From Octopus vulgaris (taxonomy: Eukaryota), in assembly GCA_951406725.2 (NCBI GenBank), contig OX597833.1, positions 7,006,001-7,070,000 on the forward strand: DNA of 64,000 nt, given 5' to 3'. Numbering within the stretch: the first letter of the stretch is position 1; every line of letters starts with the position of its first letter. The notes beneath the pieces were generated by a model. That model was not told where the DNA came from and searched no databases. It was given only the letters and a program-made list of their open reading frames with translations. Below are positions 20,166-52,127 of this stretch, piece by piece. Position numbers and translations under genes: made by a program.

Positions 20166-20470
20166 ATGAAAGAATGGAGTCGAACGACGATTTAACAAAA
20201 TTCCTTTACTCTCGACATATGTTTCGAAGACTGCATATTCCTAATTCCGAAGGAATAAGGGGTGCATTATGCCGCCTTCCCATCAGGAAAGACAAAGAAC
20301 TTATGTCAGCATCATGACGAACAAAAACTTTTAGATGACTGCCCACACGGAGTCCATAGTGAATATATATATAAGAGATAATGGTGTCATTGAGACCCAA
20401 AGGTATCAGGTAATGCTGAATAAGTGCTATAGACAGACCAAAGTTAAGTTCCAGATTCGTTAATTCTGCG
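20166..20470 (-). mobile_element. Penelope-like element 3' end (endonuclease C-terminus plus hammerhead-bearing tail) ending in (TA)n
   Basis: Minus-strand peptide ..IQHYLIPLGLND has the PLE EN-terminal P.GLN motif; a hammerhead motif follows, then (TA)n. Confidence 0.6.
20209..20291 (-). ncRNA. Minimal type-I hammerhead-like motif (A9G variant, extended stem II)
   Basis: Minus strand: CTTTC CTGATGG GAAGGC..GTCTTC GAAAC ATAT GTC GAGAG. Stems I and II pair, stem III is the palindrome ACATATGT, and the cleavage triplet is GUC. Confidence 0.65.
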
Positions 20471-20582
20471 AATAAAGGGTTCAACGTTGGTTCTATGTCA
20501 GCGTGTGTATATATGAATGTTTTGCGTAATAAGATTTAAAAAAAACCAAGGCTGTATAGATATTAGAACATTTATAGATAGG

Positions 20583-20636
20583 TCTTACAGCTGTTTCTAG
20601 GATATTAATTAATAATAATATCCCTTCATCGGAGAC
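20583..20636 (-). ncRNA. Minimal hammerhead-like motif (CCGAUGA core) within an inverted repeat at 20467-20822
   Basis: Minus strand: GTCT CCGATGA A GGGATATTA..TAATATCCT A GAAAC AGCT GTA AGAC. Arms 20467-20605 and 20683-20822 are reverse complements. Confidence 0.65.
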
Positions 20637-20945
20637 GGTGTGAGAGGAAAAATTAAGTCATGGTTAGTTTCGATGTGTATTTGATATCCTAGAAACAGTT
20701 GTAAGACCTTCTATCTATAAATGCTCTAATATCTATACAGCCTTGGTTTTTTTATCTTATTACGCAAAAAATTCTTATATACACACGCTGGCATAGAACC
20801 AACGTTGAACCATTTATTCGCAATACTATTGCGAATATTGAGATAATTAGAAGAGATAGTGTTGTTAAAGTGGTGTTGCAAGAGTAGTGAACCAGAAGGG
20901 GGGGGGAGACAGTGATGTTTGGATGTTGTTCTGATTTATTATTGA

Positions 20946-21753
20946 CTAGCAGTATCGCTAATGATGGTAATTTTTTTTTAATCGTTGACTCATCGTAGAC
21001 ATTTTTAGAGAGTTACTTCCCTTATATAATAGCGAAAAAATGCATTAAAATGGGGAAAAATGATGGTAATTTTTTTTTAAAATTGTAGACTCATCGTAGA
21101 CGCGCGCTAATACCCAGAAGGGCTCGATATGAATCACGACTATAAGATACCCGGGTTTGGTTAAACTGCACCGCAAAATGTGGGAGTAGTTAGGAATCTA
21201 AATCGTAGGAGACAGACACACAACTTCACTTTTATATATAAAGATTTGTGCAACAACTAAAACATTCGGTTGTGCAAATTGTTTGCACAGGAAACCTGCC
21301 CTGTGTGGCGTGTTTCCCGATTTTGTAGAATTTGCTTTCGGGCTTTCTCAGCCATTTCTGTTTTGGTGTCTTCAAGCCATGAAGTCGTTGTTCTAAAAGA
21401 ACGCTGGTCTCCTTGACAATGCTTTACGACGTTGATTTCCTTACACTCCCTTCCCCACAGCTTCACGAGGGAGGGAAGAAGGATGAGAAGCAACACAGGT
21501 GCAGGTGTGAGCATGGACGCCAATTCCGCCGCCAATAAAAAAAATATGCGTTAAAATGGAAAAAAATGATGTTAAATTATTTTTAAAATCGTAGACTCAT
21601 CGTAGACGCGCGCTAATACCCAGACGGGCTCGATATGAATCACGACTATAAGATACCCGGTTTTGGTTAAACTGCACCGCAAAATGTGGGAGTAGTTAGG
21701 AATCTAAATCGTAGGAGACAGACAGCACACAACCTCTCTTTTATATATAAAGA
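20946..21753 (-). mobile_element. Composite or tandem Helitron (same family as 17685-18179) with two 5' ends
   Basis: Minus-strand 5' TCTTTATATATAAAAG at 21753 and 21244, shared 3' CTAG at 20946, all at A|T junctions. 21245-21535 is absent from the 17685 copy. Confidence 0.85.
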
Positions 21754-22219
21754 TATGACTATATTAAATTGAAGCGACAAAACTGTTAGGACAGTGTTAT
21801 AATAGTGTTCTGTGGCGTGGCGGGAAGAGTGATATGTCTGGACTGACTGAGAGAGACATGGTGTGGTAGGATGATATTGCTGTAGTGTTGGGTTTTGTAG
21901 AAATATCTGGACTGATTCGGGGAGATGTTGCTGTTAGGATGAGCGTGTTGTGTTCTCAGTGCATCAGTTTAGGCGAGAGAGAGAGAGAGAGAGAGAGAGA
22001 ATCGTATAAAAGAATGTACGTTGCGTAAGTTGTACCTCTGTACAAAGAAGATCCTGTATAAATTGTGTGTGTCTTGATGTAAGTTATACGGCAGCATTGT
22101 TAAGTTCCTGCTTAGAAATGCTATTGTGTCTAAAGAGACGGTGATTTTTGCATTCGCAACACTATAAGCCTGATCTTATCTCTTCCTTCGTCTACTGTTT
22201 ACTACATTTCCTTCAGTTT

Positions 22220-49640: not shown

Positions 49641-49850
49641 AAGTTAATCCAAACAAGAAAACACAAAGAGAAAACACAAGAACGCGAGGACGTGGAACAA
49701 ATATAGTATTATTAGACGCTCAGGAAAGATGGGAAGAAGGAGGGTTTAACGTTTCGAGCGGAGCTCTTCGTCGGAAACATAGGAGAAGGAAAGATCCAGA
49801 GAAGGGAAGACAGAGGGAAAAAAATCGCCAACGGTACACACGAGGTCACA
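49641..49850 (-). mobile_element. ~210-bp Penelope-type element with a minimal hammerhead motif (49744-49778), abutting (TA)n
   Basis: Minus strand: GTTT CCGACGA A GAGC TCC GCTC GAAAC GTT AAAC. A second copy lies at 51921-52127. Confidence 0.7.
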
Positions 49851-49964
49851 ATAGATAGATATAGATAGATAGATATAGATAGATAGATAGATAGATAGAT
49901 AGATAGATAGATAGATAGATAGATAGATAGATAGATAGATAGATAGATAGATAGATAGATAGCC

Positions 49965-50128
49965 ACTACACACATTTTTTTCTCTCCTTGTTTTTTCTGT
50001 GTCTCTTTCTGTAGAAGAGTGTAGGATCGAAACGTAAAAGACTTTTTCTATTCCTGAGCGTTAAACATCTGTTTGTTTTGTACACCACCTGCCTTCGTCT
50101 TTTGTTGTTTTTCGTAAACTCTCCCTAT
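49965..50128 (+). mobile_element. Related Penelope-type element with a degenerate hammerhead motif (50004-50041)
   Basis: TCTTT CTGTAGA AGAG..ATC GAAAC GTA AAAGA. Its tail CCACCTGCCTTCGTCTTTTGTT is repeated at ~50680-50740 between (TA)n runs. Confidence 0.55.
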
Positions 50129-51920
50129 ATATATATATGTATGTATGTATGTATGTATGTATGTATGTATGTATGTATGTATGTATGTATGTACGTACGT
50201 ATGTATGTATGTATGTATGTATGTATGTATGTACGTATGTATGTATGCATGTATGTATGTTTGTACGTATGTATGTATGTATGTATGTATGTATGTATGT
50301 ATGTATGTATGTATGTATATCGTGCAGAACTTTGTGAATTCTGTTGATGTCTTATTGTCTAATGTGCGTATCTAAAGTAGAAGAAAGTGCCGTGGTAAAA
50401 AAAATACGCGGAAAAAGTTAAATCTAAGAATCTTAAATGCGAAATTGCAAAATCCAAAAGCGTAGATCGGAGAAGGCTTGGGAGATCGATGCAGCATGCG
50501 GACTGCAACGACGGTAAAAATGGACGACGGAAGTTTGGGTTAAGAGCAAAAGTGCCTGAAGAGGAGAAGTATTTGTTCGTGTCTGTGTGATTCGATAGTG
50601 TCTGTTGTCGGCTGAAACGTGTTATATATATATATATATATATATATATATATATATATATATATATATATATATAATACATTTGTTTGTTTGTACTCCA
50701 CCTGCCTTCGTCTTTTGTTTATTTTCGTAAACCTTCCCGTTATATATATATATATATATATATATATATATATATATATATATATATATATATGCATAAA
50801 CACACGCTGACACACACACACACACACACACACACACACACTTCTCTTTATAAAATCACTCTGATTCCATGGAAGCCACTAATTCTGTCATTTTGTCTAT
50901 AACTCCCAGCCATAATCCTTCCAAAGGCATCAAGAAGCAGCGCCAACACCACCACCACCACCACCACCACCACCACCACCACCACCACCACCACCACCAC
51001 CACCACCACCACCACCATTACCACCACAAACATCACCACGTCCACCATTGTCATACCACTATCACCATCTTCTTCCCCACCCCATCACCACTACCGCCAC
51101 AAGAACCGCCGCCATCATCTCACCACCATCACCACCACCACCTCCTTCGCCCTATCTATCTACCACTGTGTCAAGGTAACCGCTGAACTGGAATCAACCT
51201 ATTGCTTCTACACCAGGAAGCTTACCTCCAAATGCACCAGCGAAACCCCTTTGAAACTTTGAACGACGCTGCTCCCTGCAACAGAGACAGGGGAACGAAA
51301 TGCAGTCTTTTACATAAGGGAGATGTAAATTGCTAACGAAAACTGTGTTAATCCCTGAACAGGGAGCCAACACAAAACATTACCGATAACTCCTTCCACT
51401 CCCTGTACCCCGTCTCTTCCCCTCTGTCTTCACCCCGTCTCCTCTCCCCACCTGCAAGGGCAGAACCAGGTATTGCAATAGACTGGGGCCCAAAGGAGTT
51501 ACGCAGTTTCTTCAATATAAGAGATTTGTTAAGGAGCAGAAACGAAGTGAATAGGGACTAAGATGTTTTAGGGTGCACAAGCCGAGCTGAACCCACATCG
51601 CAGCAAGGGAAGCACTTGTGGGCAAAGGCCTGAAAAACTGTCTCGTTCACTAAACACATGAACCATGGAGCGAAGGGTGAAGTGGCGCATTGAGGGTGGC
51701 GCTTCTGTATGGCATGGCCACACACACGCTCGTCTCGTACATGGAACTAAATACAGGGCGACGCGCGCAAGGAAGAATAATATATATATATATATATATA
51801 TATATATATATATATATATATATATATATATATACATATATATATGTATGTATATATATATATATATATATATATATATATATATATATATATATATATA
51901 TATATATATATATATATATA

Positions 51921-52127
51921 AGGTTAATCCAAACAAGAAAGCACAAAAAACACAACAACGCGAGGACGTGGAACAAATATAGTATTATTGGACACTCAGG
52001 AAAGAAGGAAAGAAGGAAGGTTCAACGTTTCGAGCGGAGCTCTTCGTCGGAAACATAGGAGAAGGAAAGATCCAGAGAAGGGAAGACAGAGGAAAAAAAA
52101 TCGCCAACGGTACACACGAGGTCACAT
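51921..52127 (-). mobile_element. Second copy of the 49641 Penelope-type element (hammerhead motif at 52020-52054)
   Basis: High identity to 49641-49850; abuts (TA)n. Confidence 0.75.

Follow-up and report, generated by a model that had tools for sequence, protein, structure and literature searches.

Short (TA)n-ending repeats with minimal type I hammerhead motifs in an Octopus vulgaris genome window, and C at core position 4 in some of their families

Results

Hammerhead-bearing repeats of the window

The stretch analysed here (the window) comprises 64,000 nt of Octopus vulgaris DNA (assembly GCA_951406725.2, contig OX597833.1, positions 7,006,001 to 7,070,000, forward strand), with 39% GC and dense in microsatellites. 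It carries short repeat copies, assigned to families A to H, in which minimal type I hammerhead motifs resembling those at the ends of Penelope-like elements (PLEs) are followed in most cases by (TA)n tracts. Positions are those of the window; C4 and U4 denote C or U at core position 4. The copies are the following:

20165..20352, minus strand: family A copy with its hammerhead at 20209-20291 (C3 at 20286; cut predicted after 20214), a long stem II and ACATATGT as stem III; (TA)n reached 49 nt 3'
20363..20672, minus strand: family B copy; hammerhead 20582-20636, C3 at 20632, C4 at 20631, predicted cut after 20586; stem III ACAGCTGT; A faces A/G at the base of stem II; 212-nt 3' tail, then (TA)n at 20363-20371
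20673..20823, plus strand: second family B arm, inverted and 5'-truncated, beginning inside stem II and therefore without the CYGANGA half of the core
28490..28532, minus strand: family C hammerhead; U4 core CTGAGGA, stem I of 5 bp, decayed at 16.1 (GCC)
37269..37415, plus strand: family F 3' end, beginning in the GAAA half of its decayed hammerhead, with (TA)n at its end
37432..37658, both strands: family D copies as an inverted pair (palindrome 37503-37658), with hammerheads at 37536-37573(-) and 37588-37625(+); each core is CCGATGA, and each 2-bp stem II has A.G as its closing pair; right arm ending at (TA)n, left arm with an extra ~66-nt tail before (TA)n
39538..39645, both strands: family A 3' ends, inverted pair between (TA) tracts
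39694..39903, both strands: family F 3' ends, inverted pair, hammerhead no longer present
40156..40197, minus strand: family G hammerhead; CCGAGGA core, stem I of 5 bp, stem II GACC/GGTC, stem III ACTGT
48109..48231, minus strand: family F copy; decayed C4 hammerhead 48201-48225 (CCGAGAA...GGTCGAAACTGCA), related to family G
49643..49850, minus strand: family E copy 1; hammerhead 49744-49778, CCGACGA core, stem II GAGC/GCTC, stem III ACGT; (TA)n 107 nt downstream
50004..50125, plus strand: family H copy with U4, sister to family E; core decayed in letter 6 (CTGTAGA); (TA)n ~89 nt downstream
50679-50738: family H 3'-only fragment
51923..52126, minus strand: family E copy 2; hammerhead 52020-52054, CCGACGA; 94% identity to copy 1
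63550..63645, plus strand: family B-related 3'-end fragment, diverged, with (TA)n at its end; beyond the part of the window covered by an earlier note on this DNA

The motifs were searched with a strict descriptor (stemI-C(T/C)GANG-stemII-GAAA-palindrome-TH-stemI', with stem I of at least 3 bp, stem II of at least 2 bp and a palindromic stem III), using 200 block-wise dinucleotide shuffles of the window as control. There were seven matches, compared to a shuffle mean of 0.15 (maximum 2): 20214-20286(-), 20586-20632(-), 37540-37569(-), 37592-37621(+), 40161-40192(-), 49748-49774(-) and 52024-52050(-). The earlier note, made from the letters alone, had listed eight motifs; six were recovered, but those at 28491-28531 and 50004-50041 fail the scan, because C replaces U at 16.1 (GCC) in the former and U replaces A at position 6 in the latter. 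The match at 40161-40192(-), with the core CCGAGGA, is additional to that list. The Rfam search of the window gave no hammerhead match, its output (150 of 614 matches listed) being weak microsatellite-driven matches to microRNA models.

Stem III, which had been described as self-complementary, is palindromic in all seven strict matches, but ACTCAGAGT is of odd length and AACGTT contributes only ACGT; the odd length of ACTCAGAGT and ACTGT leaves a central mismatch in the dimer in two families. The families had also been called unrelated; they do share one architecture, but those at 49744/52020 (E) and 50004 (H) look like sisters, one C4 and the other U4, and the motifs at 40161 and 48225 likewise look related by sequence comparison. 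An extra base follows A9 in families B, D, E, G and H and is absent or small in A and C, and the G10.1-C11.1 pair is present in A, C, E, G and H and absent in B and D. This architecture (extra base after A9, palindromic stem III and inverted truncated partners) supports reading the window motifs as PLE-type minimal hammerheads. Two core-like strings were set apart from them: CTGACGA-ATT-GAAACTGTC at 57184-57202(-), without stem II, with a stem I of 2 bp and at chance level in the scan; and CYGAGGA...GAATGAC, 3' of the family F hammerhead (37294-37325, 39775-39783(-), 39808-39835, 48160-48183(-)), rejected as a hammerhead since it forms a short hairpin but no stem I.

(TA)n junctions, truncation and inverted pairs

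A tract of (TA)4 or longer lies within 110 nt downstream at 7 of the 9 motif sites (background 0.107), a count in which the 40161 match has only a short (AT)4 and two pairs of sites are not independent; six sites have (TA)5 or longer. The earlier note gave a distance of about 35-105 nt for most motifs; at 20586 the tract is 212 nt away, and at 28491 ~816 nt. The self-comparison of the window revealed short families with ragged 5' ends, the copies of A, B, D, F and H starting at varied points, and four inverted pairs with their 3' ends outward (20466-20607/20682-20823, 37503-37658, 39538-39645 and 39697-39903). Family E copies 1 and 2 have an identical 5' end, a length of ~205 nt and different flanks. 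The family A pair at 39538-39645 begins at the predicted cut site (right arm 0-2 nt from it, left arm 2-4 nt past it), which could be chance, about a dozen junctions having been examined; a general piling up of truncations at the cut site is unsupported beyond this pair, and there is no consistent depth step in the contigs described below.

The core position 4 in the window

C occupies position 4 in families B, D, E and G, and U in families A, C and H of the same window. Where the earlier note had counted three families with C4 there are four, plus the decayed relative at 48201-48225. C4 is present in six of the nine motifs, none of which has another core change: C3, G5, A6, G8, A9, GAAA and UH are intact in all six copies, and N7 varies (T, C, G). 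The core of these families, with stems I and II, fits CUGANGA...GAAA...UH except at position 4. Families B and D combine C4 with an A facing A or G where stem II begins at its base (20598; 37570-37610); speculatively, this mismatch might form a second sheared pair stacked on G12.A9.

Family-level letters were obtained for families A and B from the contigs of four runs (X1, X4, X6 and X8) aligned to 20166-20672 at 80% likeness (6850, 4386, 4292 and 2569 contigs). The 20.2-21.0 kb stretch is common to runs under four organism labels, and the depth summed over it is about ten-thousandfold that of single pieces, which hints roughly at a very high number of copies but is not a copy number. The family B position 4 is well covered and has no other letter at 8% or more in any of the four runs; the per-type variant totals, which also cover five variant rows beyond those listed, leave no change from G unaccounted for in any of them, and since C3 and C4 read G on the plus strand, neither has an alternative letter at that level. 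C4 is therefore not decay in family B. Position 11.1 of this family is A (63-71%) or G (29-37%), so that family B, like D, closes stem II by a purine mismatch; its stems vary too little to show covariation. The family B tail extends 212 nt to (TA)n in many contigs, with pieces spanning 20361-20574, the loose ends at 20363/20370 read TATATA in 52, 42 and 29 contigs, and 8 of the 15 contig-copy joints listed are to the opposite strand.

In family A, the copy at 20209 has a private G at position 9, the family letter being A in 99.9-100% of the depth in all four runs; the family core is thus canonical (CUGAUGA). Common variants, all unphased, leave stems I and II paired: G.U to G-C at 20230 (56-76%), U.G to U-A at 20211 (25-39%), and the alleles G-C/A-U at 20275/20230 and C-G/U-A at 20291/20209. 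The depth declines steadily toward the 5' end (from ~912,000 to 77,000 in X1) and loose ends extend beyond 20359 in X8. A depth step at the predicted cut site is present in X1 and X6 and absent in X4 and X8.

C4 motifs outside the window

The C4-only pattern was searched in metagenome contigs (2 of 64 parts read), which returned 100 loci of an estimated 7,800. These contain 105 motifs, of which 66 have the three stems in order; in 46 groups of them, stem I, which the pattern does not constrain, pairs in 30 (permutation mean 7.9, maximum 16). Of 21 inverted pairs in the ACATGT-type families, 18 have a partner arm with U, and the other perfect-core motifs of the same loci are U4 in ten cases and C4 in one. 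As partner arms and neighbouring motifs are mainly U4, the stem I covariation mostly reflects U4 parents, and the reading of the ~7,800 stretches as C4 families was rejected. The partner is C in 5/5 clean pairs of the GGGCTAACGCTC family (Neptune-type), four further pairs lying too near the junction to be judged, which points to a C4 subfamily in this family; one neighbouring fragment in locus L022 has U. The U4 counterpart of this subfamily appears in Fig. S3 of PMC4209133 as the Acropora motif. The L077 family is mixed, with one partner C and one U. The inverted-partner test indicates that C4 matches need sorting into decay and true subfamilies before any claim is made on them. Because (TA)4 lies within 250 nt of only 2 of the 105 motifs, C4 and the bias toward (TA)n are not linked.

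Type I hammerheads with C4 (CCGAAGA and CCGATGA) and a full stem III were also found at L001:1501-1533 and L002:1501-1533, on one phage-like contig; phage-type hammerheads numbered two C4 loci on this contig versus 13 with U4. Each of the two lies directly before a gene start (AAA ATPase-like and vWA-like open reading frames (ORFs) by eye).

Link to PLE proteins

No ORF remnant was found upstream of any window motif, and the two same-strand family E copies, 2.3 kb apart, have no ORF between them, so that the arrangement of an ORF between two pseudo-long terminal repeats (pLTRs) is not seen in the window. Two candidate protein traces were rejected: a GIY-YIG-like reading upstream of family G (40229-40570), with no Pfam match, two chance matches to repeat proteins and none to the PLE profiles; and a peptide resembling a PLE C-terminus at 20380-20420, which lies downstream of the family B hammerhead.

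Outside the window, four of the 100 C4 loci (L077, L080, L084 and L100), belonging to families other than those of the window, have the end of a GIY-YIG gene ~90-110 nt upstream. The gene end in L077 is of the Penelope/Poseidon type; relatives of those in L080, L084 and L100 carry reverse transcriptase (RT), a cysteine linker and GIY-YIG (Neptune/Nematis type). A GIY-YIG-like end in L029 was rejected as a link to C4, belonging to another element with its own U4 motif. A C4 copy at L016:2806-3462 is preceded, at a distance of 38 nt, by a stretch that resembles the N-terminal region of a PLE ORF, which suggests a nested insertion. The earlier reading of PLE-type minimal hammerheads at (TA)n is thus sustained by the architecture and by the outside C4 motifs behind GIY-YIG gene ends, but no window family is tied to a PLE ORF.

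Other repeats of the window

A remnant resembling an L1/Tx1 3' end (47241-48170; zf-RVT in Pfam, E 6.6e-08) ends at (GATA)n and belongs to an unrelated non-LTR (long terminal repeat) retrotransposon. Stretches at 5701-6474, 6895-7413, 11572-11955 and 60030-60309, beside (TTA)n, resemble non-LTR retrotransposons with a restriction-like endonuclease (KPDIV...KY motifs), without a credible Pfam match. A 170-nt repeat is present in three copies (17723-17891, 21035-21202 and 21541-21708), two of them direct and 506 nt apart. An abundant short interspersed repeat has many copies (7958-8345, 8963-9105, 11974-12306, 17234-17610, 45769-46079 and 63672-63799), and we take this family to resemble the short interspersed nuclear elements of octopus.

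Discussion

We consider it probable (roughly 0.8) that the window carries short non-coding copies of at least six (TA)n-ending repeat families with minimal type I hammerheads, likely 5'-truncated 3' ends of endonuclease-bearing PLEs, and that some of these families have C throughout at position 4. The earlier description of a mostly non-coding population is true of the copies in the window, but these may be the truncated ends of coding elements. If the established biology of PLEs applies, GIY-YIG would nick (TA)n and the nick would prime reverse transcription from the RNA 3' end, with early stops and inversions leaving truncated and inverted fragments. Two motifs in tandem within the parent element would associate via their palindromic stem III to form a double hammerhead, in which cleavage after GUH would be slow; the minimum-energy fold of the family B dimer is such a double hammerhead, 13.7 kcal/mol below two monomers. 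Since most copies retain sequence to either side of the predicted cut, the RNA that served as template had probably not been cut at its last hammerhead, or had been re-joined there, and with such a template a slower core would be tolerated at little cost. C at position 4 is predicted to slow cleavage, and U4C may be a tolerated, recurrent substitution carried by whichever master copy spread. The window copies themselves are probably inert, as single motifs lack a partner and the pair at 37.5 kb is on opposite strands.

Several results weigh against this interpretation. No PLE protein remnant was detected in the window with Pfam, phmmer of 1.84 billion proteins, two PLE profiles or tblastn, a negative that is weak because the profiles came from narrow coral-like sets. 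The minimum-energy dimer folds of the eight motifs other than that of family B differ from a double hammerhead, the stem II of family D has only 2 bp, and family C has no (TA)n within 800 nt downstream. C4 in D, E and G is represented by two, two and one copies, respectively, and the ACATGT-type partner arms and the neighbouring motifs outside the window are mostly U4.

These last points bear on the possibility that C4 is only post-insertion decay of ordinary U4 hammerheads, as does the Acropora motif, the U4 form of the outside C4 subfamily. We regard it as very improbable for the window: the contig data refute decay for family B, and C4 is found in both family D arms and both independent family E insertions, making decay unlikely for D and E; the concentration of C4 in six of nine motifs free of any other core change argues in the same direction. 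U4C had been proposed as a lineage-wide variant; because U4 is retained in families A, C and H, and unrelated hosts have a C4 subfamily, it is, from the sequences compared, a recurrent family-level change instead. A different question is whether C4 motifs still cut. They may have ceased to do so, with the fold now serving the PLE enzyme as a signal for protein binding or priming, or persisting as a relic of successful master copies, a reading that we hold to be possible and rather doubtful. U4C causes a considerable loss of in vitro activity (Perreault et al. 2011, PMC3088659), PLE minimal hammerheads cut poorly even with U4 (PMC4209133) and Naiads spread without canonical hammerheads (PMC8557442); moreover, families B and D lack the G10.1-C11.1 pair, and copies span the cut site, with a depth step in only two of the four runs. 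Against this loss of function, the rest of the core is intact in all six C4 copies while N7 is free to vary, U4C supports viroid infectivity (PMC3088659) and occurs in the two phage-type hammerheads with full stem III, and one family A pair, a single case in a U4 family, starts at the predicted cut site. At a similarly low likelihood we place the converse proposal, that minimal hammerheads with C4 still work and form a class that arose repeatedly in animal Penelope elements. Whole high-copy families, some of them also with A.A/A.G at the stem II base, would then have spread with a ribozyme that is slow by design or assisted by protein, since the 3'-most hammerhead has to stay uncut until reverse transcription can take place.

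The nature of the mobile unit may also be read otherwise. Miniature elements that are non-autonomous, have fixed ends of their own and are mobilised in trans by PLE proteins would account for the lack of ORF remnants upstream of the motifs and for the common 5' end of the two ~205-nt family E copies in different flanks, and non-autonomous hammerhead repeats have been traced to PLE termini in a 2026 preprint (bioRxiv 10.64898/2026.07.22.740005). The steady fall of family A depth toward the 5' end, the loose ends past 20359 in X8 and the varied start points of the A, B, D, F and H copies speak for truncation instead, and the shared family E end is that of two copies and could be a pLTR boundary; miniature elements are thus conceivable, though the less likely origin. 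Non-LTR retrozymes, tandem units making circular RNAs, are improbable still further: type I hammerheads do occur in non-coding animal repeats and retrozymes are kin to PLE termini, but no tandem array lies over a motif among the 150 of 214 arrays listed (to 45.9 kb), and the self-comparison contains no head-to-tail units. The term retrozyme-like, used in the earlier note, is accordingly dropped.

The preferred reading, truncated PLE ends, can be set beside published systems. Cervera and de la Pena (2014) described minimal type I hammerheads in the pLTRs of metazoan PLEs, with a short stem I, an extra base after A9, G10.1-C11.1, a palindromic stem III and weak cleavage only as dimers (PMC4209133). 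The window motifs share the short stem I, the extra base and the palindromic stem III, predicted to need a dimer, and the many divergent families per genome, mostly single copies with some opposite-strand pairs. They differ in that C is the family letter at position 4 in some families, whereas the published descriptor fixes cuganga and gaaannuh and by inspection would match 0/9 of the window motifs, and in that families B and D close stem II with A.A/A.G and not with G-C. In the available supplement of that paper 'ccga' occurs twice, both times in stems. Craig et al. (2021) report for PLEs a (TA)n bias, 5' truncation, an inverted truncated partner and a short tail at one end (PMC8557442); these features, and a hammerhead close to the 3' end, are common to the window copies and the Neptune/Nematis and Penelope/Poseidon clades. 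The (TA)n target bias is a trait of Neptune and Naiad elements. The layout of family E is that of the C4 subfamily behind the Neptune/Nematis-type ORF in L080, L084 and L100. Unlike those clades, the window has no RT or GIY-YIG sequence from which to establish a clade; 11 short window motifs do not occur in the Naiad/Chlamys/Hydra consensus file of PMC8557442 (one strand, with line breaks that can hide matches).

The same core change is known from natural U4C hammerheads of viroids and phages, with lower activity in vitro and retained viroid infectivity (PMC3088659). Those are rare single cases with a stable stem III, unlike the C4 of the window, which stands in minimal dimer-type motifs of high-copy animal repeats. 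Retrozymes are tandem units of 170-400 nt with mostly canonical motifs (PMC7229834; bioRxiv 10.64898/2026.07.22.740005); the window repeats resemble the non-LTR kind in being non-coding, with type I hammerheads, and kin to PLE termini, and are unlike them in being single or inverted fragments. The literature search returned no report of C4 cores in PLE hammerheads, its main gap being the collection of Lunse et al. 2017. Lunse, Weinberg and Breaker reportedly described in that work PLE-associated dimeric hammerhead variants with a reduced stem III that cleave as dimers. The window motifs are like these variants in the reduced stem III, the predicted cleavage as dimers and the probable PLE association.

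The system itself is already published, and the family-wide C4 core in PLE hammerheads is a modest addition to it. The octopus repeat annotation attributes 6.83% of the genome and 190 families to Penelope-like elements, and its main text, in the part available, is without ribozymes (PMC13282606). The in vivo role of PLE hammerheads has been described as unresolved (PMC7761336), and the sister families H and E, one U4 and the other C4, offer a natural pair for a simple kinetic comparison of PLE hammerhead function. A near-invariant core position appears as C in whole, successful repeat families that are invisible to published patterns; as these patterns fix U4, hammerheads may be undercounted, and some PLE families may have been called 'no hammerhead' in error. 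If C4 motifs were a working class, searches fixed on CUGANGA would have missed a large share of the hammerheads in such genomes (6/9 here).

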